Assembly (NCBI GenBank): GCA_963765125.1
Contig: CAVXUZ010000005.1
Coordinates: forward strand, 33,596-97,595
Source of the DNA: an uncultured candidate division WWE3 bacterium
GTDB taxonomy: Bacteria; Patescibacteriota; WWE3; UBA101185; UBA10185
Reading direction: 5' to 3'
DNA length: 64,000 nucleotides
The notes beneath the pieces are model-generated. The model was not told the origin of the DNA, did no database searches, and saw only the letters and a list, made by a program, of their open reading frames with translations. Position numbers and translations under genes: made by a program. Numbering within the stretch: position 1 is the stretch's first letter; each line of letters starts with the position of its first letter. This document shows positions 31,254-52,284 of this stretch, piece by piece.

Positions 31254-31255
31254 AT

Positions 31256-32458
31256 ATGCCAGTTTACGCTTACACTGCCTCAGATACTGCCGGTAATAAA
31301 AGAACAGGTGCAGTTGACGCGCGAAACAGAGAGTTTGCCGTTGGTCTGCTTAAAAACCAAGGTTTATACGTTATTGAACTGCACGAAAAACATGATTCTT
31401 TGATTGATAAACTAGGTCTTTTTGGTAATGTTCCTGAAGGTGAAGTTGTAGCTTTCACAAGACAATTTTCAACAATGATCAGCGCAGGGCTGCCAATTTC
31501 ACGTGCGTTAGACGTTCTATCTTCACAATCAACAAGTAAAGCTCTGAGAAAAGTATTAATCGATGTTTTAAGAGATATTGAAGGCGGTTCTTCACTCTCG
31601 ATGGCGCTTGGTAGATACCCAGACGCGTTTCCTGCTACGTATCAAGCTTTAGTTCGCGCAGGCGAAGCATCCGGTAAGCTCGACGATATTTTAAAACGAC
31701 TCGCTACAACATTAGAAAAACAAAGGGAGCTAAACTCTAGTTTCAAATCGGCGATGATTTATCCGACAATTGTTTTCTTTGCCATGATAGGTGTTTTTGT
31801 GTTAATGATGATATTTGTTATACCAAAACTCGCAGATATGTATGAAAGTTTAAACGTTGAGTTGCCCGCAACAACCCAGATGATGATAGATACTTCAAAC
31901 TTCATTGTAAACAATATCGTAGTTATGATTATTTTATCTCTCGGAGGCATAATCGCCTTAAGATCATTTTTGAAAACAGAAACCGGCCACGAGTTAGTCG
32001 CAGAAATTACATTTAAACTACCAGTTTTTGGAAAAATAAATAAGCAAAAAGAAGTTACAGATTTTACAAGGACGTTAGGTTTGTTAATCGCATCTGCTAT
32101 ACCAATTGTTGAGGCATTAAATATCACTGCTGGTGTTATGAAAAATAAATTTTATCGCGAGGCGGCAATAAACGCAGCGGCTGCTGTTGAAAAAGGTAAC
32201 AAACTTTCGGATTACATCAGATCAAATTCAGTTTTTCCTCCCCTACTCGGGCAAATGACTAGTGTTGGTGAAGAGACGGGGCAACTCGACGAAGTATTAG
32301 ACAGAGTTGCAAACTATTTAGAGGGTGAAGTTGACCACGCAGTAAAAGGGCTATCTTCTGCACTAGAACCAATAATTTTGTTAATGCTGGGCGGGATGGT
32401 TGGGTTCTTGATTATCTCGATTATTACACCGATTTATAAGATTACGAGTGCGCTGTAA
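31256..32458 (+). CDS. pilC: Type IV pilus platform protein PilC (GspF family)
   Basis: Two GspF repeats, each with a cytoplasmic domain plus TM segments (…GLPISRALDVL…; …AIPIVEALNITAGV…). 400 aa. Confidence 0.85.
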   Translation: MPVYAYTASDTAGNKRTGAVDARNREFAVGLLKNQGLYVIELHEKHDSLIDKLGLFGNVPEGEVVAFTRQFSTMISAGLPISRALDVLSSQSTSKALRKVLIDVLRDIEGGSSLSMALGRYPDAFPATYQALVRAGEASGKLDDILKRLATTLEKQRELNSSFKSAMIYPTIVFFAMIGVFVLMMIFVIPKLADMYESLNVELPATTQMMIDTSNFIVNNIVVMIILSLGGIIALRSFLKTETGHELVAEITFKLPVFGKINKQKEVTDFTRTLGLLIASAIPIVEALNITAGVMKNKFYREAAINAAAAVEKGNKLSDYIRSNSVFPPLLGQMTSVGEETGQLDEVLDRVANYLEGEVDHAVKGLSSALEPIILLMLGGMVGFLIISIITPIYKITSAL

Positions 32459-32598
32459 AAAACCAATTATTAGGTTGGTGATTGCAACAACAGTAATTGT
32501 TAGCTTTGCTAATTGGATATAAATCTGTTTAGAATTAATAAGTTGAACGTAATTATTTATTATAAAAATATAATTTTGAAAGGGGGTGTATTAGAACA

Positions 32599-33096
32599 AT
32601 GAGAAATCAAAAAGGTTTTACGCTAGTTGAGCTCTTGGTCGTTATCGCAATTGTCGGTATTTTAGCCGGTGTTGTATTGATCGCAATTAATCCTGCCACA
32701 TTATTGGCAAAAGCGAGAGATTCACAGAGATTGCAAGATATAGATACCATCAACAAGGCAATCGGTTTAGCATTAGCAGACAACGAGGTTACACTCGGTG
32801 CAACTGGTACATGTGCCACCTGCGACAGTTTATCAGGTTCACAGACAGTTGAGGGTGCAAACGGTTGGGTAAAGTTCACAATTCCTACAGGAAAGACTGG
32901 ACTTAGCAAATATATCGCCGCACTTCCTGTTGATCCTACAAACACAGGAGCGTTGGTTTATACATTTGCATCAACTGCAACAGCTTATGAGTTGAATGCA
33001 GTACTTGAGAATGTAGATAACGTAGCAAAAATGACTACAGATGGTGGCGACGACGCCGCAGTTTTCGAAGTGGGAACAAATCTTACTATCCTCTAA
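32599..33096 (+). CDS. pilA: Type IV pilin, probable major pilin (leader MRNQKG|FTLVELLVVIAIVGILAG)
   Basis: Canonical G-F cleavage site and E+5. A very strong Shine-Dalgarno (GAAAGGGGGTG) lies 8 nt upstream. A stem-loop terminator lies immediately downstream. Shares C-terminal blocks with the pilins at 25059 and 48299. Confidence 0.8.
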   Translation: MRNQKGFTLVELLVVIAIVGILAGVVLIAINPATLLAKARDSQRLQDIDTINKAIGLALADNEVTLGATGTCATCDSLSGSQTVEGANGWVKFTIPTGKTGLSKYIAALPVDPTNTGALVYTFASTATAYELNAVLENVDNVAKMTTDGGDDAAVFEVGTNLTIL

Positions 33097-33152
33097 TCAC
33101 CTGTCTAAGATTGGATGATAGTAACGCCCATGTGCACATGATAGCGTTACGT

Positions 33153-33186
33153 GAAAAGCCCTCCTAATCGAGGGCTTTTCTAACTT
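33153..33186 (+). terminator. Rho-independent terminator after the major pilin gene
   Basis: GAAAAGCCCTC-ctaatc-GAGGGCTTTTC is a perfect 11-bp stem followed by a T-rich tail. A second palindrome GTAACGC...GCGTTAC lies at 33121-33150. Confidence 0.6.
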
Positions 33187-33212
33187 TAGAAATATGCTAA
33201 ACTTACTAAGGT

Positions 33213-34097
33213 ATGTTGCAACAAGTATTGTTATACATTTTGGTTTTTGTCTCAGGTCTATTTTTTGGATCATTTTTAAATCTCGTTTCTGATCGAGTAA
33301 CTAAAGGTAAATCAGTTTTATTTGGTAGATCACAATGCGACCATTGTAAAAAACCACTTGGTGCAAAAAATCTTATTCCTGTTGTTTCGTATATTTTACA
33401 AAGAGGAAAGTGTGCAAAGTGCCACAAGAAAATTTCATTTTACTATCCATTTTCAGAAATTCTTACCGGTTTAGCATTTGTTGGTGCTGCAGTTTCAGCA
33501 AGAATCACAGTTTTAGTTAACGTTTCAACAATATTTACATTCATATATCTTCTTGGTGTTGCTAGCTTTTTTATCATCTTGCTTTTAACAGATATGAAAG
33601 AAAGAGTAATCCCAAATAAAATTATTTACCCAGCAATTATTTTTGTTTTCTCATTTTTAATATTAAGCGCAGTAATTTATTTCTACATGTATTACATCCA
33701 ACTTAAAGCTGACACGTTTGGTCAATATTTACTCGACGCTGGAATTATGAAAGTACAAATCTTAAACTCATTAGTCTCTCTGGGAATTTTGATTTTAAGT
33801 TCCCTGGTTATTTCTGCATTCTTTGCGTTTTTAGTTTGGATAACAAAGGGCAGAGGTATGGGAGCTGGCGACATTAGACTCGGATTTTTAATTGGGTTGT
33901 TTAACGGCTATCCATTTAACTTTATCGCAATATTTTTAGGATTTGTCTTGGGAGCCCTAGTAAGTTTGGTTCTAGTTGTTTTAAAGAAAAAGACGATGAA
34001 AGACACAATTGCATTTGGGCCATTTTTAATCTTAGGGAGTGTTGTAGCAATGATCTGGGGAAGCCTAATTTTACAGTGGTATACAAACCTTCTCTAA
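33213..34097 (+). CDS. pilD: Prepilin peptidase / N-methyltransferase PilD (A24 family)
   Basis: N-terminal zinc-binding CDHCKKPL...CAKCHKKI. Catalytic Asp regions (TDMKERVIPN; GAGDIRLGFLIG). 294 aa, polytopic. Confidence 0.85.
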   Translation: MLQQVLLYILVFVSGLFFGSFLNLVSDRVTKGKSVLFGRSQCDHCKKPLGAKNLIPVVSYILQRGKCAKCHKKISFYYPFSEILTGLAFVGAAVSARITVLVNVSTIFTFIYLLGVASFFIILLLTDMKERVIPNKIIYPAIIFVFSFLILSAVIYFYMYYIQLKADTFGQYLLDAGIMKVQILNSLVSLGILILSSLVISAFFAFLVWITKGRGMGAGDIRLGFLIGLFNGYPFNFIAIFLGFVLGALVSLVLVVLKKKTMKDTIAFGPFLILGSVVAMIWGSLILQWYTNLL

Positions 34098-35218: not shown

Positions 35219-35248
35219 AAAAATATTTTGGTATATACTAGAAATACT

Positions 35249-35635
35249 ATGGAAGAAAACATTACAAAGAAAAAAACCGTACTTTTAGTTGAGGACGAAG
35301 TAGATTTAGTAGATTTATACACAGAAATATTAAACGAAGCGGGTTACGATGTACTCCCCTCTTATGACGGTGAAGATGGAATTTATAAAGTAAAAAATGA
35401 AAAATGGGATTTGTTACTTTTAGATATTATGCTCCCAGAAAAAGATGGTATGGCTGTACTTGAAGAAATGCAAAAAACTGAGGCCTCAAAAAAGGGACCG
35501 GTGGTGCTACTCACAAACCTAAACAGTGAAGATCTCATAGAACGTGCATACAAACTAGGTGCCGATGACTATTTAATCAAATCAGAAATTTCGTTAGACG
35601 ATATTGTTAAAAAAGTAAAACAGTATCTTAGTTAA
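35249..35635 (+). CDS. Single-domain response regulator (receiver only), divergent from the histidine kinase
   Basis: VLLVEDEVDLVDLYTEIL...DLLLLDIMLPEKDGMAVLEEMQ...VVLLTNL...K. Start taken at ATG 35249 (MEENITKKK); the track uses TTG 35228. The stop overlaps the start of the next gene. Confidence 0.8.
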   Translation: MEENITKKKTVLLVEDEVDLVDLYTEILNEAGYDVLPSYDGEDGIYKVKNEKWDLLLLDIMLPEKDGMAVLEEMQKTEASKKGPVVLLTNLNSEDLIERAYKLGADDYLIKSEISLDDIVKKVKQYLS

Positions 35636-36171
35636 TGTTTAAGCTTAGTAAAAAAAGAATCACAATTATTTTATTTGTTATTGTCATTTTGGCAATTACC
35701 ACAGCCGCCGTCATTTTTATACTTCCAAAGATAACAAATAAAAAAAGTGTAGTTAGAGATCAGCCAATTGCATACGAGGACACTAAAGACACAATTGTTC
35801 CCGAAGAAGCAGCAGCGTTGATAGAGTTAAATGCAATTTTAGATCCTGAAACCGACTATTGGGCAGACTGGAGCTGGCAAGCAAAATATGCAGAGTTTAT
35901 CATAAGCAATTTAAGTGTTGCTGATAATTACATTGTTGGCTACATTAGCAGACCGGTGGCGTTATCGAATAATAATGCGCAGATAGTAAAACACCCGTTA
36001 TGTGATCCTACAAAGTCGATTGCGGTTTCCAAAGATGATCCACTTAGAGGTATAAATGCAAAAGGCTTTGAATTTATGCAACGTGCAAGCTCTGGAGATA
36101 TTTTCTACACCAATTGTTTAGACGAGGAGTGTTTTAACATTGGCAATAACTGTGTCTTAGTAGAATTTTAA
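35635..36171 (+). CDS. Membrane-anchored small secreted protein, member 1 of a C-x3-C-x6-C C-terminal motif family
   Basis: N-terminal signal-anchor KRITIILFVIVILAITTAAVIFIL. C-terminus ...ASSGDIFYTNCLDEECFNIGNNCVLVEF. Clear paralog of the 40272 gene and related to 36174. Confidence 0.6.
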   Translation: MFKLSKKRITIILFVIVILAITTAAVIFILPKITNKKSVVRDQPIAYEDTKDTIVPEEAAALIELNAILDPETDYWADWSWQAKYAEFIISNLSVADNYIVGYISRPVALSNNNAQIVKHPLCDPTKSIAVSKDDPLRGINAKGFEFMQRASSGDIFYTNCLDEECFNIGNNCVLVEF

Positions 36172-36173
36172 AA

Positions 36174-36749
36174 ATGAAAAAATTAATAAACAAAAAAATA
36201 TTACGAATCTTATTAATAATACTTGGCGTTATATTGCTGGGCTTTATAGTTAGCCCATTTATTTTTAGTAAACGAGTAGAAATTAATGAGTTTGACCAGA
36301 TTTATATAAAGAGTAATAGATTTGTTTTACCTAAATTAATTTCAATAGAAAAAAGACAAGATATCGGGGTTAAAGAGGCAGGTTTAATCAAAACCGAAAT
36401 TATCTCTCCTGAGGGTAAAACTGGTATTAACGAACTTTCTTATTGGGATACGTGGACTTGGAACACAAAATTGGTAAAACTAGAAATCTTAAGAGTTTCT
36501 GTTGAAAGCGGTAATGTTTACGCAAGTCTATTACTTCCTGCCGAGTCGAGTGGGTTGTCACCAGAAAAAGAGTACGAAATCAAATGCAGTGTTGATGAAA
36601 CATCTGTTATTTATTTTCGTGATCCAGCTAATCGCAACGATGAGTATAAACCAGCGATTGAACTGTTAGCGTCCGGTGACCTGTTCTACGCATATTGTTT
36701 GGATTCTCAATGTAGTTCTCTTGGTCGACGCTGTATTATTGAGCGCTAA
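36174..36749 (+). CDS. Membrane-anchored small secreted protein, member 2 of the C-x3-C-x6-C family
   Basis: Signal-anchor ILRILLIILGVILLGFIV. C-terminus ...LASGDLFYAYCLDSQCSSLGRRCIIER. Confidence 0.55.
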   Translation: MKKLINKKILRILLIILGVILLGFIVSPFIFSKRVEINEFDQIYIKSNRFVLPKLISIEKRQDIGVKEAGLIKTEIISPEGKTGINELSYWDTWTWNTKLVKLEILRVSVESGNVYASLLLPAESSGLSPEKEYEIKCSVDETSVIYFRDPANRNDEYKPAIELLASGDLFYAYCLDSQCSSLGRRCIIER

Positions 36750-36772
36750 AAACTACCTTTAGTTTAAGGTAC

Positions 36773-36811
36773 CCCATAGTTGATATTTGCCACATAATTT
36801 GAGACAATCCA
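36773..36811 (+). promoter_or_regulatory. Conserved upstream element CCCATAGTTG-N16-TGAGACAAT, copy 1 of 4 (upstream of the 36855 lipoprotein gene)
   Basis: Same bipartite motif as at 40866, 41465 and 42179. Confidence 0.4.
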
Positions 36812-36854
36812 ATTAAACTTAAATAACCCGAAAAAACAATAAAAAGGAGGCAAA

Positions 36855-37748
36855 ATGAAGACTAAGTTTTTTTCAGGGTCTTGGCTATTTAGCCGCACTT
36901 TAAAAACTCTAATTCTCGTACTACTTATTACGTCAGTTGTTATGACAATACTTATCGGCTGTACGCCTGCGACGTCAGTTCTAGTCGTAGAACCGATTGT
37001 AACTACAAACACACCGCTAATAGAGATTGTTGGCGAGTCGACAGCTACAGCAGTACCTACGGCTACCCTATTTCCGACCATGGTTGTTACGCCCGAGCCA
37101 ACTACAATGCCAGAAAATTTTGGGTGGCCCATCTTACAAGAAATGCCTTACGGTGAGGAACGTGCAGAGATTGAGGCTTCGCTTGCAAAGGACCCTAACC
37201 TTGTAAAAGGAACTCCCTCTGAGAATGAGCGGTTCATGATTGCTGATGTATGGGGTTTATGGCCACTTCTTTATAATCCAAACACAGGGATGTTACCTGA
37301 CTATTCAAATAAAAGTCTTCCAGATGACCTTTACAGTTATCTGAATGTTTGGTATAGAGGCAGTCATAAATTTTATGTCGACACCGGAACAAGTGGTAAC
37401 CCGGCGATGTTTGCAGAACAACTAGACGGTAATCTACCGATAATGTTTAAATACCCATTTGTGGTGTATGAATATGCAAATAGCACGTCGAGTAGTCTTT
37501 GCCAGTTTTTCGAAGCCGGAACGTTAGCCGGCTATGGATTGGGTGAAGAGACTGTCGATGGGCAGCCAAGTGACATACCAACCGGAATCGCATATCTGGT
37601 TGAAAGGTTTGGTGATTCTAAAATCATCAATGATGCAGACAGGCTGTACTGTAGTAACTTTGATCCTGTCTCAAACGACTTCTTAACCATAGCAAAGGCA
37701 AAAGGTTACGATACTATAGTTGCACAGGTTTTGGAAAAGCTCAAATAA
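36855..37748 (+). CDS. Putative lipoprotein or secreted protein (297 aa), unknown function
   Basis: Strong SD (AAAAAGGAGGCAAAATG). Signal peptide with lipobox-like LIGC. Thr/Pro-rich linker. An upstream CCCATAGTTG...TGAGACAAT motif is shared with the 40949, 41548 and 42261 genes. Confidence 0.5.
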   Translation: MKTKFFSGSWLFSRTLKTLILVLLITSVVMTILIGCTPATSVLVVEPIVTTNTPLIEIVGESTATAVPTATLFPTMVVTPEPTTMPENFGWPILQEMPYGEERAEIEASLAKDPNLVKGTPSENERFMIADVWGLWPLLYNPNTGMLPDYSNKSLPDDLYSYLNVWYRGSHKFYVDTGTSGNPAMFAEQLDGNLPIMFKYPFVVYEYANSTSSSLCQFFEAGTLAGYGLGEETVDGQPSDIPTGIAYLVERFGDSKIINDADRLYCSNFDPVSNDFLTIAKAKGYDTIVAQVLEKLK

Positions 37749-37847
37749 AATAATCGAGAATTAGAAAATTATTAAGTAACACCCTCAGTCACTTTGAGGG
37801 TGTTTTTTATTGTTATTCTATAAATAATCGTTTAGTATTAATAAGTA

Positions 37848-40097
37848 GTGAACAATACTTCACCTTGCCTAAAACTTAATACCATATTATTAATCCGTTT
37901 GTTAATTTTTATTACTAGTGCTTTTTTACTTTCATTTGCTACAAAAAACGTTATTTACGCAGGCTGCGCCGCAAACGAATGTGACGGACCAGGTGAATAC
38001 GAGTGCGAGAATGGAACGATGTGCTGTACAGGCGGCGGATGTCCATCAAACAGATGTCCAGCCAACTGCACTGCTAGAATTTATTCGGGTTATTGGACGT
38101 GTAATTGTACACTATCAAGAGAGGTATGTTCCATTCCTACACCGTATGATTGTGAGCCTTGCATTACTGAAAGGGTGTGTGGACCAGAGACAACATGTGG
38201 TTATGTGAGTAGTTCAACATGTGCACAATGGGCTACCCGTTCTTACCCATGTCGACAAAAGACATGTTGGTATAATTATTGTTGGTACACTTGGGGCACA
38301 TGCAAGTCAACATACTGTGCAAGATACTATCAGGTTTGGCGCTGCTCAACCACAGACGTTTGCAAAAATGTTAAAAATTGTAGTACTTGCTACAAAAAAA
38401 ATTGCTTCATAGAGTACTACGAAGATCAAACAACCTACACCGCTAGAGGTACATGTAAATACTGTACACAGGGTGGCGGCGGGGGTGGTGGCTCTTGCAC
38501 AACTAACCCAACTGCGCCTACTTTAAATACCCCATTTGAAGGTTCGTCAATGCAAGGTAGTCTAGCAATTGATTTTAGCTGGAATGCCCCGACAAGTTGG
38601 GGGGCTAATTGTACGCCCGCAAGTTACTTTCTAATGGTTGATGACGAGAGTAGTTTTACAGACCCCCGAGTGCACAGCGTGTCGTACCCAACTTCGACTA
38701 CATCACAAACCGTTACAATGCCGGGAGAAGATACTTATTTTTGGAGAGTTCAGGCGTGTAATCAACGCGGCTGTACCTCATCTGTCACGAGGTCATTTAA
38801 CTTTAGTTGCGGTATAGCTCCTGGTAGAGCAACTAACCCATCGCCGTCAGATGGTGCGACCGACGTTACTATTGCACCAACACTATCATGGGATGGCCCA
38901 TCAGATTGGGGTTCAGCATGTGGTATGAACAACAACAATAGATTCACAGTTTACGGTCAGGTTAAAAATGGAGTATGTGAGGGTCCAGGTTCTGGCTATT
39001 CTGCAATACCTTCTTGTACAAATTTACCTGAGGGTACGACATCTTGTATAGACCCATTTTTCAACACCAGCAGTACCCCTTACTGTTGGTATGTTTCCAC
39101 AAACAACGGTACAGAGACGACGCTTTCTGCCTCTACTGCTGATGAAGTATGGGAGTTTAGAACAGAAGAGCCCATCACTTATACAAATTGGGTTACTGCA
39201 TTGTTTGGTGATTTTTATGCAGGAGGTTTAACCGAGCAATACCCAAGCACAACACGCTATGTGACGCCTTGGAATCCTCCATATGCAGCATATGAAAAAG
39301 AACCTACCTCCTCTGATGAGCCAAACGTAGCACTTATCACAAGCAATGATACGGATATAACAAATGATAATGGTGCTAATGAATACAATCCCGGATCTCA
39401 ATCAAATCTATCAGTTGAATTTGCTAACTTTGAAGAAACATGGCCTGCAAGCTACCGCGGTACTCCCCCAGCTTCAGCTATTAATTTACCTTTAAATGGA
39501 GGCTCTTGTTCAGATATCTTCACAGGTAGTACAAAGCTTGATCCTTACGAAGTATATGAAGCTGATGCAAGCTGTATGTCAGAAGCAATCAATGCAGTTG
39601 ATGGTAACCCCAATGGCTATTCACTAGCCTCAGACGGTTATACAGTTATCTTTGTTACAGGAAGCACAAACCTTGAAATAGACAGTCCATTTACCACATC
39701 AAATGATGATTACCGTGTGGTATTTGTTACTGGACCTAATGTTTCAGTACAGATAGATAGAAACTTAAAGTTAGCAACCGATCCTGATTTTAACAGTGAG
39801 CCTTTAATTGAAGCTGCCTTTATCGTTACCAAAGACTTAACCATTGAGGGTGCTGCTAACGATTCATCTATAGACCTAACTACTGATCCAGATGGTTCAA
39901 TTATGGTTGAGGGTCCACTTATCGCAAGAACAGTAAACTTTAACAGAAACAGAGGTCTAACTAATCAATATCCATCAGAGATTGTTAAATACAATCCTAA
40001 CTACATATATAACCTAACAGAACAAGAAAGAACCTCTCTAAAAAACAATGGTTCAGGCCTGTTTGTTATTGATATTACTTGGATGAATGTAGACTAG
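37848..40097 (+). CDS. Giant secreted protein 1 (749 aa): signal peptide, extremely Cys-rich module, Gly7 linker, two FN3-like domains, and a conserved C-terminal domain shared with the 43554 gene
   Basis: About 40 Cys in residues 38-218 (CAANECDGPGEYECENGTMCC...CKYCTQGGGGGGGSC). FN3-like repeats with the W...Y.W.VQACN..GC...TRSF pattern. C-terminal 261 codons nearly identical at the DNA level to 44931-45714. Confidence 0.7.
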   Translation: MNNTSPCLKLNTILLIRLLIFITSAFLLSFATKNVIYAGCAANECDGPGEYECENGTMCCTGGGCPSNRCPANCTARIYSGYWTCNCTLSREVCSIPTPYDCEPCITERVCGPETTCGYVSSSTCAQWATRSYPCRQKTCWYNYCWYTWGTCKSTYCARYYQVWRCSTTDVCKNVKNCSTCYKKNCFIEYYEDQTTYTARGTCKYCTQGGGGGGGSCTTNPTAPTLNTPFEGSSMQGSLAIDFSWNAPTSWGANCTPASYFLMVDDESSFTDPRVHSVSYPTSTTSQTVTMPGEDTYFWRVQACNQRGCTSSVTRSFNFSCGIAPGRATNPSPSDGATDVTIAPTLSWDGPSDWGSACGMNNNNRFTVYGQVKNGVCEGPGSGYSAIPSCTNLPEGTTSCIDPFFNTSSTPYCWYVSTNNGTETTLSASTADEVWEFRTEEPITYTNWVTALFGDFYAGGLTEQYPSTTRYVTPWNPPYAAYEKEPTSSDEPNVALITSNDTDITNDNGANEYNPGSQSNLSVEFANFEETWPASYRGTPPASAINLPLNGGSCSDIFTGSTKLDPYEVYEADASCMSEAINAVDGNPNGYSLASDGYTVIFVTGSTNLEIDSPFTTSNDDYRVVFVTGPNVSVQIDRNLKLATDPDFNSEPLIEAAFIVTKDLTIEGAANDSSIDLTTDPDGSIMVEGPLIARTVNFNRNRGLTNQYPSEIVKYNPNYIYNLTEQERTSLKNNGSGLFVIDITWMNVD
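39267..40050 (+). repeat. 784-bp intragenomic direct repeat, copy 1 (partner at 44931-45714); in-frame coding sequence
   Basis: Base-by-base comparison of the printed lines. The copies are identical except two adjacent third-position synonymous differences at 39956-39957 (ggtcta versus gggtta). Confidence 0.85.
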
Positions 40098-40271
40098 CTA
40101 CTTTAAAATAGGGTTATGTTATTAAACCAATATTGAATTTTGGCCTGTTGATAAGGTAAGAAAAAGTCTTATGATATTGTTAACAAAACTAGACAGTAAA
40201 GACCCAGTAGATTGCGATCGCAAACTGTGTGCCAGTGTCTACTTAAAAAATAGAAATTTTGTAATTTAATA

Positions 40272-40802
40272 ATGCCCGTTAAAGATTACATACAAAAGAA
40301 AAAATTCTCCGTCACCATACTTCTGATAGTTATTGTTGTAACACTAATTACTGTAGGTTTCGTAATGCCGCTCATCACCAACCCAGAAAAAAAAGTTGCT
40401 AAAGATACAAAGACAACGCAAGTTGGAAAACTAGACGCAAACATGTTGCCATCAGAATTTGTAAAAGCGTTTTCAGAAGGGTCAATGTATTTTAAAAATT
40501 GGAACTGGCATGACAAAATGGTGCAAGTCATAATTACAGACTCAAGCGTTAGTGAAGATTCGATGGCAGGCTACATCAGAAACCTAACTGATAAATTTCC
40601 TGACAGAGAAAACAGAAGATTTTTTAACTCGTGCACGCCTGAACAAACTTTTGCTGTGTCTAACGTCAACCCAACTAAAAGCGTTTTAGCAAAAGGTTTT
40701 GGTTTAGTGAGCCGTGCCTCTGCGGGAGACATCTTATATACGTACTGTCTTGACGAAAACTGTGTAAACCTCGGCAAGAGCTGCGTGCTGATTGAATTTT
40801 AA
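40272..40802 (+). CDS. Membrane-anchored small secreted protein, member 3 of the C-x3-C-x6-C family
   Basis: Signal-anchor FSVTILLIVIVVTLITVGFVM. C-terminus ...ASAGDILYTYCLDENCVNLGKSCVLIEF. About 45% identical to the 35635 product over the C-terminal half. Confidence 0.6.
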   Translation: MPVKDYIQKKKFSVTILLIVIVVTLITVGFVMPLITNPEKKVAKDTKTTQVGKLDANMLPSEFVKAFSEGSMYFKNWNWHDKMVQVIITDSSVSEDSMAGYIRNLTDKFPDRENRRFFNSCTPEQTFAVSNVNPTKSVLAKGFGLVSRASAGDILYTYCLDENCVNLGKSCVLIEF

Positions 40803-40865
40803 ATAATCCCCTACTTTATGTTTTTTGGTTTGGTGATTTTTTTTGCGTCGGTGGATAACCGATAG

Positions 40866-40902
40866 CCTATAGTTGATTTTTATGCTGAAAATGTGAGTTA
40901 AT
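40866..40902 (+). promoter_or_regulatory. Conserved upstream element CCTATAGTTG-N17-TGAGTTAAT (putative promoter/operator), copy 2 of 4
   Basis: The same bipartite motif with the same spacing occurs at 36773, 41465 and 42179, each about 45-60 nt upstream of a secreted-protein gene. Confidence 0.45.
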
Positions 40903-40948
40903 CCTTATCAATTGTATGTGCTCAGTCAATACCGCAAAGGAGGTACAA

Positions 40949-41386
40949 ATGGCTGTTAAGAATGGCTCGGCTGTATTTGTTGTTGTGAGCGTTTTATTAC
41001 TGGTTATGGTACTTGTAGTGACGATTGTTTATATAACATTAAAACTTACTGCACCGATTGAGTTAAGGAGCTTTACGGACGTAACTGACAAAGTTATCTC
41101 TGGAGAGATTGTTTGCGCCCCATTGGGAGACGCGCAGTTAGAAAGAACAAGACTTGGTCTAAAATCAGGTCGCACCACTATAGTAAATCAACTCTACCCG
41201 AGTCATAACGTGTCAGTGGCATGTTCCTTTCTTGTGGTGCTCGAGTCAGCTAATCCAGAAGTAGTTACGATCGTTTATTACAAAAAAGGTGGAGTTAGGG
41301 TAGTGGAGAGGGTTTTAATAGACCCGCGGAATGCAGCGCAACTCTGGAAAAATGCTAAACCGGTAAATGGTAACTTAAATTTATAA
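40949..41386 (+). CDS. Small secreted/membrane-anchored protein, tandem paralog A (146 aa)
   Basis: Start at the ATG preceded by AAAGGAGGTACAAATG, which is the identical RBS context of the 42261 gene. Signal-anchor AVFVVVSVLLLVMVLVVTIVYI. Conserved blocks VISGEIVCAPLGD and VVTIVYYKKGGVRVVERVLIDPRNAAQLWKNA are shared with the 41548 and 42261 products. Confidence 0.55.
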   Translation: MAVKNGSAVFVVVSVLLLVMVLVVTIVYITLKLTAPIELRSFTDVTDKVISGEIVCAPLGDAQLERTRLGLKSGRTTIVNQLYPSHNVSVACSFLVVLESANPEVVTIVYYKKGGVRVVERVLIDPRNAAQLWKNAKPVNGNLNL

Positions 41387-41401
41387 ATTGTAGATTTGTT
41401 A

Positions 41402-41440
41402 GTCCCCATCTCTTTCACCAAGATGTGGGGATTTAATTTG
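41402..41440 (+). terminator. Stem-loop terminator after paralog A
   Basis: TCCCCATCTCTTTCACCAAGATGTGGGGA followed by TTTAATTTG. Confidence 0.4.
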
Positions 41441-41464
41441 TTTGATAGCCCAACACAAATAGTA

Positions 41465-41500
41465 CCTATAGTTGCACTTAGCAAAGATTTATGAGTAAAT
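41465..41500 (+). promoter_or_regulatory. Conserved upstream element CCTATAGTTG-N17-TGAGTAAAT, copy 3 of 4
   Basis: Same motif and spacing as at 40866 and 42179. Confidence 0.45.
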
Positions 41501-41547
41501 AGCATCAAGATAAATCCGTATATTCCACATCAAGGAAGGAGGGAAGA

Positions 41548-42099
41548 GTGGCTACAAATAACAACTTTAGTAAGGTTGTAGTTTTAATGCTTGCTGTGCT
41601 ACTGGTTGCTGTTTCAGGTTGTAATGAGACTCAGGCAAGTGTTTCACCGACCGTTGAACCAACTCTGGCACCAACGATCGTGATTAAAAATATTGCTACA
41701 ACGACGCTGCCACCAACTACCAAGCCCACGTTAGTACCAACACCTTCGGAGGAACTTGGGTCAACATCAACACCAATAGCTGTAGTAGAAATTAGATCAC
41801 TAGATGAATTGATTACTACTGTTAATAATGAAGTTATTGCTGGTGCACCCATCTGTGGAACACCCAAACTTGGGGATTCAGGAGTAACGTTATCTAACGG
41901 TTTTAAGTACTTAAGCTTAAAAACAAAAGTGTTTCCGGATTTAGAAAAAATACTTTGCCAGTACCTTATTATTATGCCAAATGAGCATACTCCAACTGTT
42001 ACAGCAGTATATTTAAGAGATGGTGTGTACCTACTTGAAAATGTAAAGATCGAAAAGAGCCTATTAAATGATTTTTGGAAAAAAGGTTTAACTGAGTAG
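41548..42099 (+). CDS. Lipoprotein, tandem paralog B (183 aa); GTG start
   Basis: Signal peptide with lipobox LLVAVSGC. Thr/Pro-rich linker. C-terminal domain VIAGAPICGTPKLGDSGVTLSNGFKYLSLKTKVFPDLEKILCQYLIIMPNEHTPTVTAVYLRDGVYLLENVKIEKSLLNDFWKKGL is homologous to the 42261 product. Confidence 0.55.
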   Translation: MATNNNFSKVVVLMLAVLLVAVSGCNETQASVSPTVEPTLAPTIVIKNIATTTLPPTTKPTLVPTPSEELGSTSTPIAVVEIRSLDELITTVNNEVIAGAPICGTPKLGDSGVTLSNGFKYLSLKTKVFPDLEKILCQYLIIMPNEHTPTVTAVYLRDGVYLLENVKIEKSLLNDFWKKGLTE

Positions 42100-42120
42100 T
42101 AAACACCTAAGTCGCAATCA

Positions 42121-42162
42121 AACCCCACCTTACTTTTTAAGAAGATGGGGTATTTTTTTAAA
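42121..42162 (+). terminator. Stem-loop terminator after paralog B
   Basis: AACCCCACCTTACTTTTTAAGAAGATGGGGT followed by ATTTTTTT. Confidence 0.45.
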
Positions 42163-42178
42163 AAGCATTTTAACATGC

Positions 42179-42214
42179 CCTATAGTTGCAAATTTACCTA
42201 AAATATGAGTAAAT
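42179..42214 (+). promoter_or_regulatory. Conserved upstream element CCTATAGTTG-N17-TGAGTAAAT, copy 4 of 4
   Basis: Reads as TTGCAA-N17-GTAAAT (sigma70-like) preceded by the conserved CCTATAG. Confidence 0.45.
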
Positions 42215-42260
42215 AACAACAGAACAAATCAACGCAAACAATACCATAAAGGAGGTACAA

Positions 42261-42764
42261 ATGAATGCGAAAAATAACCACACTAAGGTTATGGTTGTTG
42301 TTATTGTTATAGTAGCAATACTGGTCATGGGTTATACCACAGCAGACGCAGGGTATCTTCTGACAGGAAAAAATACTCTGGGATCCAAGGTTGCGCGGAG
42401 CTCAGTGTCGTCTTCGATGGCTGATTCCACCTTGATGTTCTTGCCAATATCCCTAGACGAGAAAATTGATTCTATCGCAGAAGATGTAATTGCTGGAAAG
42501 ACAGTATGCGGTGATCCAGGAGCTGACTTAACAGCCATGAAGTTTGACTCTGGATACAGATACGTAAGATGGCATGTAACAAAGTTTCCGGAGTACAAAC
42601 AGGTGATGTGTAAACTCATTGTTGTGCTACCGTCAGAAAAGTCGTCCACTGTTTTTGTTGTATATTTAAACAACGGCGATTACACGGTTAGTGAGGCCCT
42701 TGTTGATTCCAAAATACTTAAATCTTTTTGGAAAAGAAGTCTATTGATAACCACAGAATCTTGA
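42261..42764 (+). CDS. Secreted/membrane-anchored protein, tandem paralog C (167 aa)
   Basis: RBS AAAGGAGGTACAAATG. Signal-anchor VMVVVIVIVAILVMGY. C-terminal domain VIAGKTVCGDPGADLTAMKFDSGYRYVRWHVTKFPEYKQVMCKLIVVLPSEKSSTVFVVYLNNGDYTVSEALVDSKILKSFWKRSL. Confidence 0.55.
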   Translation: MNAKNNHTKVMVVVIVIVAILVMGYTTADAGYLLTGKNTLGSKVARSSVSSSMADSTLMFLPISLDEKIDSIAEDVIAGKTVCGDPGADLTAMKFDSGYRYVRWHVTKFPEYKQVMCKLIVVLPSEKSSTVFVVYLNNGDYTVSEALVDSKILKSFWKRSLLITTES

Positions 42765-42770
42765 TAGGAG

Positions 42771-42810
42771 ATCCCCACTTCAATTTTATTGGACTGGGGA
42801 TTTACTTTAT
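42771..42810 (+). terminator. Stem-loop terminator after paralog C
   Basis: ATCCCCA-cttcaattttattggac-TGGGGAT has a perfect 7-bp stem and is followed by TTACTTTAT. Confidence 0.45.
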
Positions 42811-42811
42811 G

Positions 42812-42840
42812 TTGACATAGGTGAACAATAATTACATAAT
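42812..42840 (+). promoter_or_regulatory. Sigma70-like promoter TTGACA-N17-CATAAT ending 6 nt before the GTG/ATG start of the 42847 gene (possible leaderless transcript)
   Basis: Consensus -35 TTGACA at 42812-42817. 17-nt spacer. -10 CATAAT at 42835-42840. Confidence 0.5.
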
Positions 42841-42846
42841 TTTACT

Positions 42847-43575
42847 GTGATGAATGTATTGCCCAAAAGAAACGCCATCCTGGTAAGTGTAATTATAATC
42901 TTGTTTACTCTAACGCTATTATCCATCGTGCCGTACTTAACGTTAAGAAGCTACATCAAAAGAAATGTTGATAAAAATATAGAATATGTGTTTTACGTTG
43001 AGGTAGAAGATTCATTAAAAAATTCAAAATATCCAAATCTTGCGACTTGGTACCTAAGTAAGGTACAGAACTTTTATAAAGCAGTACTTAATAGGGAGTT
43101 TCTTGTAGAGCTACCTGATTATAATACTGTTTTTCAAGCCTACGACTACACCGAATACCCAGCTGTATTTTTGGTCAAGAATTATGACTTACCAACAGAC
43201 GAGATAAGTATTGAATTTGTAATGCCCACTGATTTTGCTGAATTTACAGCAGTAGCAAAGTTGAACTGCGGTAAGGCAACAACGCGTGCTGGTGTATACA
43301 GTGCTAGCCAGCAAACCGAGAAATGGGCAATACTCAAGGAGTTACGACAGAGTAATCTTAGCGAAGAAGACAGGTTTACTTTGATTGGTAAATTATATCG
43401 CGCAATTCCGTTTGAAGAACAGCTATCAGTGGAAAATGGTGTTGGCCAGACAATTCAGGAGATGCTGGAGCGATCAGAAATAACACAGGACAAAAGGCAG
43501 CTAAAATTGGTAACAACTTGTAGAGAGGACCAGTGTGACAATACCTCTGAGCAATGTATTCTGTACATTCAATAA
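42847..43575 (+). CDS. Membrane-anchored secreted protein (242 aa), divergent member 4 of the C-x3-C-x6-C family; overlaps the start of giant protein 2 by 22 nt
   Basis: Signal-anchor AILVSVIIILFTLTLLSIV. C-terminus ...KLVTTCREDQCDNTSEQCILYIQ. Confidence 0.55.
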   Translation: MMNVLPKRNAILVSVIIILFTLTLLSIVPYLTLRSYIKRNVDKNIEYVFYVEVEDSLKNSKYPNLATWYLSKVQNFYKAVLNREFLVELPDYNTVFQAYDYTEYPAVFLVKNYDLPTDEISIEFVMPTDFAEFTAVAKLNCGKATTRAGVYSASQQTEKWAILKELRQSNLSEEDRFTLIGKLYRAIPFEEQLSVENGVGQTIQEMLERSEITQDKRQLKLVTTCREDQCDNTSEQCILYIQ

Positions 43576-45761
43576 ATATGAAAATTAATAAAAACTATAC
43601 TAATAAGAGTGCCTTACCTTTTGTAGCGTCATTGTTTCTTGCGTGTGTTATTTTGTTTAGTCCTGTTGCCGATGCAAAAATTTACAATCCTAAACCAAAA
43701 CCTGGAAAATATATTAACTGGGACAGAGTTTACAAAGAGAGAATAAATAAAATTCATGAGAAGGATGCCAAGATGGCGGCGACTTACGCAAGACTGGCAG
43801 CTAAAAACCCAGATAAGCTGAGAGATTTAATCGATACATGGGCAGCAAACAAAGGTATTACTCATGATCAGTTTAATGTCTGGGAGGTAAAGAATCTTTA
43901 TTCAATAATCTCGGGAGGAAGCGTTGTCCTTGGTAGCTTTGGGCCGTCTGCGGACTATGAGTTTATTGTCAGCGATGACGGCACAAAGATGTATTGGAGT
44001 GACGCCACCGGCGGTTATACAAGTATAACTGTACCTGCGCGTTACACTACAGTATCAGGTCAGTATGCGTCATATAATTCATCAACTGGTGTTGTTTGTT
44101 ACAGTTGGATTGGTTGTACTATACCAACTACCGCATCTAATGGAAATACAAACAATGGATGTAGTGGGCTACCTACGGCGCCACCACTTGTTAGTCCCCT
44201 CAACGGTGCAACAATCTTTGAGAATAAAACGATTAGTTTTCAGTGGGGTGCACCCACTGGGTGGGGTACAAACTGTCCAACTCATGTATATAGGCTACAA
44301 GTTGACGACGAAAACACGTTTAGTGAGCCTTCTGCTTTAGATTCTGGTTTTGATGGTAGTACAACCTCAACGACAGCAGATTTTACTTTAAATAAAGAGT
44401 ACTTTTGGAAAGTTCAAGCTTGTAACGCAAAAGGATGCACCCCCTCTGTAACAAGATCATTCATACTTGGTTGCGGTATCGCTCCAGGAGTTGCATCAAA
44501 CCCAACACCTTCAGACGGTGCAATAGATGTAGTTATTGCACCAACACTGTCTTGGGATGGTCCATCCGATTGGGGCTCAGCATGCGGTATGGATAACAAT
44601 AATACATTTACGGTATACGGTCAGGTTAAAAATGGACTGTGTGAAACTCCAGGCCCAGGTTATTCTGCAATTCCAACTTGTACAAACCTCTCTGAAGCAT
44701 CAACATCTTGTGTAGATCCATTCTTTAACACTCGAAGCACACCATATTGCTGGTATGTAGGAACAAACAATGGAACAGAAAGTAATACGTCAGCAGCAAC
44801 AGCTGACCAAGTATGGGAGTTTAGAACTGAAGACCCCCTTCTCTTTGAAAACTGGGTAACCACACTTTTTGGTGATTTTTATGCAGATACTCTTGCAGAA
44901 CAATATCCTAAATCAGCAAACTACGCATCCCCTTGGAATCCTCCATATGCAGCATATGAAAAAGAACCTACCTCCTCTGATGAGCCAAACGTAGCACTTA
45001 TCACAAGCAATGATACGGATATAACAAATGATAATGGTGCTAATGAATACAATCCCGGATCTCAATCAAATCTATCAGTTGAATTTGCTAACTTTGAAGA
45101 AACATGGCCTGCAAGCTACCGCGGTACTCCCCCAGCTTCAGCTATTAATTTACCTTTAAATGGAGGCTCTTGTTCAGATATCTTCACAGGTAGTACAAAG
45201 CTTGATCCTTACGAAGTATATGAAGCTGATGCAAGCTGTATGTCAGAAGCAATCAATGCAGTTGATGGTAACCCCAATGGCTATTCACTAGCCTCAGACG
45301 GTTATACAGTTATCTTTGTTACAGGAAGCACAAACCTTGAAATAGACAGTCCATTTACCACATCAAATGATGATTACCGTGTGGTATTTGTTACTGGACC
45401 TAATGTTTCAGTACAGATAGATAGAAACTTAAAGTTAGCAACCGATCCTGATTTTAACAGTGAGCCTTTAATTGAAGCTGCCTTTATCGTTACCAAAGAC
45501 TTAACCATTGAGGGTGCTGCTAACGATTCATCTATAGACCTAACTACTGATCCAGATGGTTCAATTATGGTTGAGGGTCCACTTATCGCAAGAACAGTAA
45601 ACTTTAACAGAAACAGAGGGTTAACTAATCAATATCCATCAGAGATTGTTAAATACAATCCTAACTACATATATAACCTAACAGAACAAGAAAGAACCTC
45701 TCTAAAAAACAATGACTCAGGTCTGTTTGTTGTTGATGTTACTTGGATTAGCGACGAATGA
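43554..45761 (+). CDS. Giant secreted protein 2 (735 aa): signal peptide, non-Cys-rich N-terminal domain, FN3-like domains, and the same conserved C-terminal domain as the 37848 gene
   Basis: Signal peptide ALPFVASLFLACVILFSPVADA. The FN3-like region is 70-85% identical to protein 1. The C-terminal 261 codons (44931-45714) are nearly identical in DNA to 39267-40050. Confidence 0.7.
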   Translation: MYSVHSINMKINKNYTNKSALPFVASLFLACVILFSPVADAKIYNPKPKPGKYINWDRVYKERINKIHEKDAKMAATYARLAAKNPDKLRDLIDTWAANKGITHDQFNVWEVKNLYSIISGGSVVLGSFGPSADYEFIVSDDGTKMYWSDATGGYTSITVPARYTTVSGQYASYNSSTGVVCYSWIGCTIPTTASNGNTNNGCSGLPTAPPLVSPLNGATIFENKTISFQWGAPTGWGTNCPTHVYRLQVDDENTFSEPSALDSGFDGSTTSTTADFTLNKEYFWKVQACNAKGCTPSVTRSFILGCGIAPGVASNPTPSDGAIDVVIAPTLSWDGPSDWGSACGMDNNNTFTVYGQVKNGLCETPGPGYSAIPTCTNLSEASTSCVDPFFNTRSTPYCWYVGTNNGTESNTSAATADQVWEFRTEDPLLFENWVTTLFGDFYADTLAEQYPKSANYASPWNPPYAAYEKEPTSSDEPNVALITSNDTDITNDNGANEYNPGSQSNLSVEFANFEETWPASYRGTPPASAINLPLNGGSCSDIFTGSTKLDPYEVYEADASCMSEAINAVDGNPNGYSLASDGYTVIFVTGSTNLEIDSPFTTSNDDYRVVFVTGPNVSVQIDRNLKLATDPDFNSEPLIEAAFIVTKDLTIEGAANDSSIDLTTDPDGSIMVEGPLIARTVNFNRNRGLTNQYPSEIVKYNPNYIYNLTEQERTSLKNNDSGLFVVDVTWISDE
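44931..45714 (+). repeat. 784-bp direct repeat, copy 2 (partner at 39267-40050)
   Basis: See copy 1. Identity breaks exactly at both ends (g/c before, g/a after). Confidence 0.85.
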
Positions 45762-45974: not shown

Positions 45975-46841
45975 ATGATAAAAAAATACAATACTGCTCT
46001 AAAAGAATCAGAAAAAGGACAAGCGTTGCTTTTTGTTGTAGTCGCTATGACAATTGCTTTGTCTATTGGAATTAATTCAAGTGTCAGAACACTTACCTCC
46101 CTGTCAAGAACTTCAAGATCAGACACGGCCTCAAGAGCTTTAGCTGCAGCAGAGGGCGGCATTGAGAGATATCTTGCACTCTCTACAACCGAACTAGAGA
46201 GTACGATTACTGGCAATTGCGCAGCAGGAACTTATGATCAAACAGCAGAAGCTTGCCTGATAGAGTTTGATGCTTCTTCTGATGCAATTGTTTCTCAAGC
46301 TCACGTTACTGTGCAAAGATACGAACCAGATTTCTATCCCTTTGATTTAGAGAGTGGCCAAGTTAAAGAAGTGAATCTTTATGATTACAACAGCGGTAAT
46401 CATTACGGTGCTTCTACTGTCGAAGTTTGTTGGAATTCAAAACCACAATCAGAGTTAATGTATATTGCATACAAAGACTCCGGTATTAGTGCTCGTGGTG
46501 GTCTTACCGGTTCAAACGCACCAGATGCTCCTTACAGCAGCAAAGGTTTTGAAAGCGCAGGACCGGGCAGAGACGGATACGCTAACTGCAAAACTATAGA
46601 TATAACTAATGATGTTTACGGGCTGAGAATTAGATCTGTTGGTGATGCTTCTAGCGTTGCAGTGTTCCCTACCGGCAATGAGAGACTCCCTCTTCAAGGT
46701 TATACAATTAAATCTATTGGAAGAATACAACAGGACCAAGGCGTTACCGCTACGAGAACAATTAGCATTATAAGAAGTCTAGCTTATCTCCCTGTAAGCT
46801 TTGACTATGCGTTATATTCAGAGGGCTCGATTACTAAATAA
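45975..46841 (+). CDS. PilX-like minor pilus protein (PilX_N-type N-terminus, no prepilin cleavage site)
   Basis: MIKKYNTALKESEKGQALLFVVVAMTIALSIGINSSV...ASRALAAAEGGIE. Paralog of the 50417 gene (shared C-terminal FDYALYS / FDYALFQ). Confidence 0.6.
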   Translation: MIKKYNTALKESEKGQALLFVVVAMTIALSIGINSSVRTLTSLSRTSRSDTASRALAAAEGGIERYLALSTTELESTITGNCAAGTYDQTAEACLIEFDASSDAIVSQAHVTVQRYEPDFYPFDLESGQVKEVNLYDYNSGNHYGASTVEVCWNSKPQSELMYIAYKDSGISARGGLTGSNAPDAPYSSKGFESAGPGRDGYANCKTIDITNDVYGLRIRSVGDASSVAVFPTGNERLPLQGYTIKSIGRIQQDQGVTATRTISIIRSLAYLPVSFDYALYSEGSITK

Positions 46842-46848
46842 TCTGACC

Positions 46849-47734: not shown

Positions 47735-47790
47735 AGAATATTTCACTCTCCTACCTTGACACCGCAACGCTAAAATCTCATACTTAATCT

Positions 47791-48799: not shown

Positions 48800-48825
48800 A
48801 AAAGTATAAGTGTTAGAATTTTAGT

Positions 48826-49864: not shown

Positions 49865-49865
49865 A

Positions 49866-52281: not shown

Positions 52282-52284
52282 TCG

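Follow-up and report, generated by a model that had tools for sequence, protein, structure and literature searches.

Type IV pili are believed to play a central part in host attachment and DNA uptake in CPR bacteria (Patescibacteria), and to our knowledge the parts that determine pilus specificity are largely unannotated in the genomes of this group. PilY1/PilC-type tip proteins of other type IV pilus systems are encoded just upstream of the minor-pilin genes. PilY1/PilC and the non-PilD 'PilX1/PilX2' proteins of Saccharibacteria are large, Sec-type, non-pilin proteins encoded beside minor pilins, which are thought to prime pilus assembly and to act as adhesins (PMC7541494, PMC12206443). A term search of the Saccharibacteria paper revealed no small anchored partner. 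In Myxococcus xanthus, the accessory factor TfcP is needed to stabilise PilY1.1, a large non-pilin tip protein (PMC8833165). [quoted passage not shown]

Here we analysed a stretch of 64,000 nucleotides from an uncultured candidate division WWE3 bacterium, the whole of which is referred to as the window. The window contains a complete type IV pilus locus. The type IV pilus core (PilB, PilT, PilC, the major pilin, and prepilin peptidase PilD) is encoded on the forward strand at 28420..34097, followed by a soluble PAS histidine kinase with PAS, HisKA, and HATPase domains (34094-35218, reverse strand) and a stand-alone receiver protein (35228-35635, forward strand). Further downstream, all on the forward strand, are four genes for small proteins (A to D), a 297-aa lipobox-like membrane protein (X297, 36855..37748), two large proteins, a conserved 288-aa protein followed by minor pilins with the N_methyl motif (45975..51226), and PilM, PilN, and PilO (51250..53755). 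This pilus locus, the main context of proteins A to D, had been overlooked in the sequence-only reading of the window. Promoter-like sites were no more frequent in the window than in shuffled sequence.

Protein A (178 aa, 35635..36171) is encoded directly downstream of the receiver gene, whose stop codon its start overlaps (TAATG), and is followed in tandem by protein B (191 aa, 36174..36749). Protein C (176 aa, 40272..40802) and protein D (242 aa, 42847..43575, or 241 aa from an alternative ATG at 42850) lie further downstream. All four open reading frames were confirmed at the starts first reported, with exactly the C-termini quoted for them, and the proposed N-terminal signal-anchor was borne out, with one strongly hydrophobic 19-mer at the N-terminus of each protein (Kyte-Doolittle mean 2.9-3.2). 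Each protein has exactly four cysteines, at positions 123/161/166/173 in A, 138/175/180/187 in B, 121/159/164/171 in C, and 141/225/230/237 in D. The C-terminal tri-cysteine motif described earlier is therefore common to all four proteins, although its spacing is C-x4-C-x6-C and not C-x3-C in the first interval. The fourth cysteine, said for A, B, and C to lie about 40 residues before the motif, is 84 residues away in D, which has an insertion of about 70 aa before the C-terminal cysteine hairpin. Among the 94 open reading frames of at least 100 aa in the window, only six contain C-x4-C-x6-C, and A to D are four of these six.

Judged by their sequences, A, B, and C are plainly paralogous: A and C are 34% identical (E 4.5e-30), the pairs A-B and B-C match with E ~2e-9, and the three score 136.7, 118.7, and 155.8 bits, respectively, against the family HMM. 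The earlier proposal of a four-member family thus holds by BLASTP for these three, whereas D has no BLASTP match to A, B, or C and is placed only by the family profile. Against this profile D scores 27.7 bits in two collinear pieces, a score reached by none of 2000 shuffles of the D ectodomain, and the next open reading frame in the window scores 11.7 bits. The hhalign probability of D versus the family is 49%, compared with at most 1.5% for control proteins. The hairpin glycine, the YWxxWxW block, and the GD..Y block are all present in A, B, and C; D has serine at the conserved glycine position, and its aromatic and GD blocks are degenerate. On its profile score, D is a probable, but not certain, member of the family.

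A profile of A, B, and C retrieved 89 clusters (50% identity) at E <=1e-3 among 1.84 billion representatives, and the tri-cysteine motif recurs in 88 of these 89 homolog clusters from other genomes. The four cysteines (one upstream plus C-x4-C-x6-C) are invariant in 87 of 87 aligned members, and the glycine in the cysteine hairpin is 97% conserved, while the transmembrane segment is poorly conserved. In 86% of members the N-terminal tail carries a net positive charge, and the ectodomain has a median pI of 4.55, with pI <6 in 97% of members. A word-index homolog search with A returned only the window's own proteins. As the first reading had stated, no characterised family was recognised: A to D matched no family in Pfam, NCBIfam, or PDB sequences, and the 87 members matched none in Pfam. 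Sequence comparison therefore indicates that A, B, C, and more distantly D belong to a genuine unnamed protein family of WWE3-type and other Patescibacteria (CPR) assemblies.

The AlphaFold2 model of A (pLDDT 90.6) has a transmembrane helix at residues 6-34, a helix at 56-69, and strands at 85-177, with a low-confidence linker interrupting the helix. According to this model, the family protein would be single-pass, starting with a few positively charged residues in the cytoplasm, followed by a transmembrane segment, a flexible linker, one helix, and an acidic small beta-barrel ectodomain of about 95 residues. The four invariant cysteines most likely pair up as two extracellular disulfides, and CPR bacteria are known to have MdbA-like oxidoreductases and VKOR for making disulfides outside the cytoplasm (PMC6744442); alternatively, the cysteines could bind metal. 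In Foldseek searches of the PDB, the best ectodomain matches were OB/CusF/IF1-like barrels, all weak (E >=0.03, TM ~0.5 on the target). OB-fold and CusF-like small beta-barrels are thus the nearest structural match to the modelled ectodomain, but by weak resemblance only, and the predicted fold gives no clue to function. An OB-like fold encoded in a competence-type pilus locus would suggest DNA binding, but the acidity of the ectodomain speaks against it.

Several known identities were considered for the family and rejected. A sortase is contradicted by the lack of histidine or arginine among the conserved positions, of a Pfam match, and of any sortase among the Foldseek matches listed. A thioredoxin-fold oxidoreductase of the DsbA/MdbA type is not consistent with C-x4-C in place of CxxC, an all-beta barrel after one helix, and no Pfam match. 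Identity with PilN or PilO was rejected since neither PF05137 nor PF04350 was matched, the hhalign probability versus PilN was 1.5%, and the true PilN and PilO genes lie at 52285-53755. Homology to the neighbouring E/F/G paralogs, X297, PilN, or the major pilin was likewise rejected, with hhalign probabilities of at most 1.5%. A pilin identity lacks support: PF07963, which marks the class III signal peptide of type IV pilins and pseudopilins, was absent from A to D and from the 87 members, though the neighbouring pilins match it. A looser version of this idea, in which the family is a degenerate, uncleaved pilin-like protein built into or under the pilus, draws on the N-terminal hydrophobic helix, the beta domain with C-terminal cysteines (superficially like a disulfide-bonded D-region), and the location of the gene among pilin genes. 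However, the N_methyl motif and the conserved Gly(-1)/Glu5 are absent, the transmembrane segment varies within the family, the linker breaks the helix, and the hhalign probability versus the major pilin is 0.3%, and we regard this as the least probable explanation.

The large proteins, called giant in the first reading, are only 749 aa (large protein 1, 37848..40097, forward strand) and 735 aa (large protein 2, 43554..45761, forward strand, or from a start at 43578). Large protein 1 has a signal peptide, a cysteine-rich N-terminal module (…MCCTGGGCPS…), tandem FN3-like domains, and a conserved C-terminal region. The C-terminal 540 aa of large protein 2 are 80% identical to it, and the cysteine-rich N-terminal module is missing. 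The family genes had been placed immediately upstream of each large gene. This is correct for D, whose gene overlaps large gene 2 by 22 nt if the latter starts at ATG 43554, as had been proposed, but is followed by a 2-nt gap if ATG 43578 is used. It is not correct for A, B, or C: X297 and a strong terminator-like hairpin at 37778-37804, upstream of the gene for large protein 1, separate A and B from it, and C, which comes after large gene 1 and lies four genes upstream of large gene 2, adjoins neither. Proteins loosely similar to X297 recur beside family genes in other genomes.

To place this arrangement in context, related loci were collected from genome and metagenome collections with the degenerate DNA pattern [YF]CL[DN]xxCxx[hydrophobic]GxxC[IV]L; pattern stretches without a family open reading frame (~8 of 20 in genomes, ~10 of 34 in metagenomes) were treated as chance matches. 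In most of the related WWE3/Patescibacteria loci, the family gene lies directly 5' of, and often overlaps by 4 bp, a gene for a large signal-peptide protein with a cysteine-rich "GCPSW" N-terminal module; where the sequence reaches further, a 283-313 aa protein and then minor pilin genes follow. WWE3/Patescibacteria MAGs and metagenome contigs show the same gene order, also where the family member is a distant one. A cysteine-rich large open reading frame directly follows 21 of the 36 unique family open reading frames, with a GCP[ST] motif in 18 of those 21, and after most of the remainder comes another family gene or a single intervening membrane protein of about 300 aa. The small and large genes overlap by 4 bp in three loci (L023, L024, and L025), and the pair occurs twice within one locus in L014 and L054. 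In L028, L038, and L046 the pair lies between the minor pilins and PilM and not after the response regulator. The suggested co-occurrence with large FN3-containing proteins thus took the form of genomic coupling: in some loci the two genes are duplicated together, and they change place together within pilus loci. The family gene and the large gene are a tightly linked, often translationally coupled cassette in pilus loci.

These loci also bear on a regulatory explanation, in which the small proteins signal the status of the pilus or the tip protein to the adjacent histidine kinase and receiver. The FimS-AlgR system of Pseudomonas, which is modulated by PilY1 and minor pilins (PMC5979040), provides a precedent, and a receiver gene lies upstream of the family gene in many loci as well as overlapping gene A in the window. 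However, the cytoplasmic tail comprises only ~5-12 residues, the kinase has no transmembrane segment besides its three domains, and the cassette is away from the receiver gene, beside PilM, in L054 as in the three loci above, leaving a regulatory link a remote prospect. The family gene, present in one to four copies per locus, co-duplicates with the large gene and not with pilMNO. This argues against the small protein being the extracytoplasmic part of a monoderm CPR pilus machine, a PilP/GspC analogue that contacts PilN/O independently of the large protein. Bitopic topology, a small beta domain, and constant presence in pilus loci would suit such a component, but paralogs this divergent are unusual for a core machine part, profile similarity to PilN is lacking, and PilP/GspC structures were absent among the 50 Foldseek PDB matches listed. 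We consider a machine component rather improbable.

For the canonical members, the partner has the cysteine-rich GCPSW module in 18 of 20 cases, while D and L014 2-619, which diverge most from the rest of the family, have partners without it, an association that comprises only 22 phylogenetically non-independent pairs. The first reading had suggested contact through the conserved C-terminal domain of the large proteins, which is not supported as stated: it is the N-terminal module that varies together with the small protein. The partners carry 17-50 cysteines, concentrated near the N-terminus, which together with the invariance of the family cysteines could indicate a dedicated oxidative-folding factor whose redox-active cysteines form or shuffle disulfides of the partner. 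The divergent L014 2-619, which lacks the cysteine hairpin and has a partner without the module, fits this idea. However, the family has neither CxxC nor a thioredoxin fold, being modelled as a beta-barrel, D retains its four cysteines and yet has a partner with almost no N-terminal cysteine, and MdbA/VKOR are already present in CPR bacteria, so that this function appears highly improbable. A more elaborate version would make the small protein a new, non-thioredoxin, membrane-tethered redox/folding factor, whose invariant cysteine hairpin engages the GCPSW module of the partner by mixed disulfides or as a disulfide-knot template, the two acting as a CPR-specific 'load-and-lock' pair in place of PilY1-type tip assembly; we hold this to be very unlikely.

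It is gene position, just upstream of the minor-pilin genes, that suggests a PilY1-like role for the large proteins. They differ from PilY1/PilC in having no PilY1/PilC Pfam domain but a cysteine-rich GCPSW module, tandem FN3-like domains, and a C-terminal region of no known kind; no Pfam or NCBIfam match to the PilY1/PilC C-terminal beta-propeller was found in either large protein of the window, and no sequence relative was found in the PDB. The structure model of the large protein, built from six sequences, was poor (pLDDT 41), with the tandem FN3-like region as its only usable part. In a word-index homolog search, large protein 2 matched nothing beyond the proteins of the window, and a profile of 12 large proteins matched only six proteins, four of them from outside the window.

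We tentatively favour, at somewhat under even odds, a reading in which the small protein, tethered in the membrane, serves as a docking or chaperone partner of a PilY1-like non-pilin pilus protein. As the cognate large protein exits the Sec translocon, the small protein would capture it at the membrane, probably via the variable N-terminal module of the large protein, would keep it folded and retained in a cell without an outer membrane, and would hand it to the minor-pilin priming complex, so that it reaches the pilus. The arrangement in the window, where A, B, and C do not adjoin a large gene, counts against this reading. The same cassette linkage is expected if the small protein is instead a permanent membrane anchor that stays bound to the large one, the pair forming a two-subunit adhesin at the cell surface that is pilus-encoded but not pilus-borne. 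The large proteins bear a signal peptide but lack an anchor, and CPR cells have no outer membrane that would hold back a protein once secreted (PMC6744442). However, the cassette is always among genes for pilins, the 288-aa protein, and PilM, a position typical of priming or tip components, and a permanent anchor seems unlikely.

The proposed docking or chaperone role follows the same functional logic as that of TfcP, also a small extracytoplasmic protein, whose gene accompanies a minor-pilin/PilY1 set. However, TfcP is a soluble periplasmic c-type cytochrome that binds calcium (PMC8833165), whereas the non-homologous A-D family, known from sequence and a model, is predicted to be a membrane-anchored beta-barrel protein and has no CxxCH. 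The likeness to PilY1/PilC and PilX1/PilX2 concerns the large partner and not the small protein. PamC and PamD resemble A to D as membrane-tethered helpers of pilus subunits in CPR bacteria, with a proposed role in both cases; the Pam pilus differs in using donor-strand exchange and chaperone-usher-like components from a separate operon (bioRxiv 10.64898/2026.03.03.709456). A to D matched none of the NCBIfam CPR_pilus models at E <=0.1. A PamR/Pam-pilus identity was also rejected for the neighbouring open reading frame F, which scores 23 bits against a cut-off of 300; the assembly system and operon described for the Pam pilus are different ones.

The small proteins are thus a new family within an already known kind of system, the type IV pilus. 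Our analysis defines a two-gene cassette, a small four-cysteine membrane-anchored protein with a large cysteine-rich FN3-containing protein, that is conserved in the retrieved pilus loci of WWE3-type and other Patescibacteria, and the family HMM provides a marker for annotating CPR pilus loci. The cassette is a candidate for retaining a large non-pilin protein and mounting it on the pilus in a monoderm cell without a periplasm. If the small protein and the N-terminal module do pair specifically, duplicated cassettes could diversify adhesin repertoires.

The window contains four ORFs on the + strand, A (35635-36171, 178 aa), B (36174-36749, 191 aa), C (40272-40802, 176 aa), and D (42847-43575, 242 aa), each encoding a single strongly hydrophobic N-terminal segment, described as a signal-anchor in the sequence-only reading, and exactly four Cys, three at the C-terminus and one upstream. 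The C-termini quoted in that reading matched these ORFs exactly, while its motif, C-x3-C-x6-C, was off by one, the actual spacing being C-x4-C-x6-C. The corrected pattern occurred anywhere in six of the 94 window ORFs of at least 100 aa, four of which were A-D. In BLASTP comparisons, A and C shared 34% identity (E 4.5e-30), A-B and B-C matched at E ~2e-9 each, and D had no match with A, B, or C.

A word-index search with A returned A alone. A profile of A, B, and C searched against 1.84 billion representative proteins retrieved 89 clusters at E ≤1e-3 and 34 at E ≤1e-10. The C-terminal tri-Cys motif, typically YCLDxxCxx[IL]GxxC[IV]L, was present in 88 of the 89 clusters and so does recur in homologs, the point on which the earlier claim had been made to depend. 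In the family alignment (87 sequences), the four Cys were the sole invariant columns, one Gly of the hairpin was 97% conserved, and 71 members had exactly four Cys. The median length was 191 aa, the N-terminal tail was net positive in 86% of members, and the ectodomain had a median pI of 4.55. As anticipated, no known family was recognized: A-D had no Pfam match, nothing meaningful in NCBIfam, and no match among PDB sequences, the 87 members had no consistent Pfam match, and no source gave these proteins a name. The 4-Cys proteins are a real, conserved, and unnamed protein family.

D was missing from the 89 clusters. When all 550 window ORFs were scored with a family HMM built without D, D reached 27.7 bits and the next non-member ORF 11.7 bits. 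The match consisted of two collinear pieces, residues 6-147 (including the first Cys) and 220-240 (the Cys hairpin), separated by ~70 additional residues. None of 2000 ectodomain shuffles of D reached this 27.7-bit score (maximum 18.7). The ectodomain by itself scored 17.3 bits. The hhalign probability of D against the family was 49%, compared with ≤1.5% for PilN, the major pilin, X297 (a 297-aa membrane protein), and three paralogous small ORFs, E, F, and G. Based on the HMM score, shuffles, and hhalign, D is probably a divergent family member, with less certain membership than A-C.

The AlphaFold2 model of A, built from the 87-sequence alignment, was confident (pLDDT 90.6, pTM 0.71), with a TM helix (6-34), a low-confidence linker, a helix (56-69), and seven strands plus one short helix between residues 85 and 177. 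We infer a signal anchor of N-in/C-out topology and two disulfides, which in A, from the strand register of the model, are probably C161-C166 and C123-C173; the four Cys may instead form a metal site. MdbA-like oxidoreductases and VKOR have been reported in CPR bacteria (PMC6744442). The ectodomain fold is weakly OB-like, but its acidity argues against DNA binding.

The window holds a complete type IV pilus locus, made up of PilB, PilT, PilC, the major pilin, and PilD (28420-34097), a soluble PAS histidine kinase and a stand-alone receiver protein (34094-35635), a 288-aa protein followed by a series of minor pilins with the N_methyl motif (45975-51226), and PilM, PilN, and PilO (51250-53755). 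The start of A overlaps the stop of the receiver gene (TAATG). The kinase and the CheY-like receiver, which has no output domain, are divergently transcribed, and the pair keeps its place across several related loci (such as L011, L017, L022, L033, and L042). Elsewhere in the window, an Rfam tRNA match (57365-57492, - strand, 128 nt, 45.7 bits) adjoins tRNA-Ile; it was not called by ARAGORN and may represent a tRNA with an intron or with some other unusual feature.

Two large proteins, G1 (37848-40097, +, 749 aa) and G2 (43554-45761, +, 735 aa), carry signal peptides and tandem FN3-like domains. The large-protein model was poor (pLDDT 41), with the FN3-like region as the sole confident part (Foldseek E 3e-7 to FN3 pairs). 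Family genes had been placed next to each large gene, which fails for C, since it adjoins none. The proposed overlap of D with the start of G2 holds for ATG 43554 (22 nt) and not for ATG 43578 (2-nt gap), the latter giving a signal peptide of more usual form. Between X297 and G1 lies a strong terminator-like hairpin (37778-37804), and a good promoter-like site (42812-42840) lies upstream of D, although promoter-like sites as a class were not commoner than in shuffles. The C-terminal 540 aa of G1 and G2 are 80% identical, and their genes (38736-40084 vs 44400-45748) are 89% identical in DNA sequence across 1361 nt, including a 689-nt exactly identical stretch (39267-39955 and 44931-45619), whereas the N-terminal ~200 codons are unrelated. 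This pattern points to a recent gene conversion or domain swap, or possibly to an assembly collapse.

Scanning genome and metagenome collections with a degenerate DNA pattern that encodes the Cys hairpin retrieved related loci, and exact look-ups of distant family members gave five more. True matches in the genome scan came from MAGs labelled WWE3, 'Saccharibacteria', or Patescibacteria, and the closest relatives of the window included a WWE3 MAG with 82% PilB identity. Family members also occurred on contigs with non-WWE3 NCBI labels (L010, 702 bp, Anaerolineales; L020, L005, L008, and L012, Saccharibacteria). At least some of these labels probably reflect errors of binning or naming, because the pilus proteins of L020 are 80-85% identical to those of the window.

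The recurring gene order, pieced together from the loci, is PilB-PilT-PilC-pilin-PilD-(kinase)-receiver, one or two family genes, (a ~300-aa membrane protein), a large Cys-rich protein, the 288-aa protein, and minor pilins; in the window, A-B-X297-G1 follows the arrangement of L020. Directly after 21 of the 36 unique family ORFs was a large ORF with a Cys-rich N-terminus (18 of the 21 with a GCP[ST] motif within a conserved MCCTGxGCPSWxC module), and directly after three was a second family gene; the remaining 11 were mostly followed by an X297-like protein and then, where sequence extends, the large gene. In L023, L024, and L025, the family and large genes overlap by 4 bp. The pair is present twice in L014 and L054, and in L028, L038, and L046 it lies between the minor pilins and PilM instead of behind the receiver gene, so the pair behaves as a mobile two-gene cassette within pilus loci.

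The sequence of X297 (36855-37748) includes a lipobox-like LIGC as well as a Thr/Pro-rich linker. Loosely conserved membrane or lipoprotein-like proteins of this kind (~220-430 aa) recur beside family genes (L004 1082-2035, L020 5374-6327, L005 1443-2741, L017 674-1336, L008 1787-2671, L022 4663-5520, and L024 1552-2388) and may be a third cassette component. E (40916-41386), F (41548-42099), and G (42261-42764) each have an N-terminal hydrophobic segment and a domain of ~100 aa in which two Cys are conserved (VIAGxxxCG…C…VYL…FWK). F and G matched at E 2e-20, F had a sub-threshold match to NCBIfam CPR_pilus_PamR (23 bits), and the three showed no relation to the 4-Cys family (hhalign probability 0.3%). 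Since no relatives of D, the G2 N-terminus, or E/F/G were found among the retrieved loci, C, E, F, G, D, and G2 appear to make up a second module specific to this lineage.

Directly after the signal peptide, large proteins carry the Cys-rich module C…C.GPGEY.C..G.MCCTGxGCPSWxC, found in the window (37848-38470), L004, L005, L007, L011, L012, L014, L019, L020, L024, and many metagenome loci, with no Pfam or NCBIfam match; G2 lacks it. Of 20 canonical members directly preceding a large gene, 18 had a partner with this module, whereas D and L014 2-619, the two that diverge most (~28 bits each), had partners without it (p ~0.03, simple hypergeometric). As the pairs are not phylogenetically independent, this association is only suggestive; it favours the partner's N-terminal module as the probable site of contact over the conserved C-terminal domain, which the sequence-only reading had put forward for complex prediction.

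The best-supported reading is that the small protein acts as a membrane-tethered docking or chaperone partner of the large non-pilin protein. In a cell without an outer membrane, it would hold the Sec-exported, disulfide-rich large protein at the membrane and then hand it to the priming complex of minor pilins. The family itself, its predicted fold, its pilus-locus setting, and its linkage to the large gene are shown by the data above; topology, disulfides, binding, and function are inferred. Functionally, the nearest precedent comes from Myxococcus, whose PilY1.1 is stabilised by the accessory factor TfcP (PMC8833165); there, the complex for priming and for the tip consists of PilY1 together with minor pilins (PMC7541494). 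TfcP is not homologous to the 4-Cys family. Saccharibacteria have large non-PilD 'PilX1/PilX2' proteins, which have been proposed to be adhesins (PMC12206443); neither these proteins nor PilY1 and minor pilins are homologous to the family. Rival readings of the small protein that were weighed are a subunit that permanently anchors a surface adhesin, a PilP-like part of the pilus machine, a link to the two-component system, a redox or folding factor, and a degenerate pilin. As a docking or chaperone partner, the small protein is a new component type in a known kind of system, the accessory factors that serve non-pilin tip proteins of type IV pili. With its putative mechanism, the 4-Cys family provides a concrete, testable lead for CPR pilus biology.
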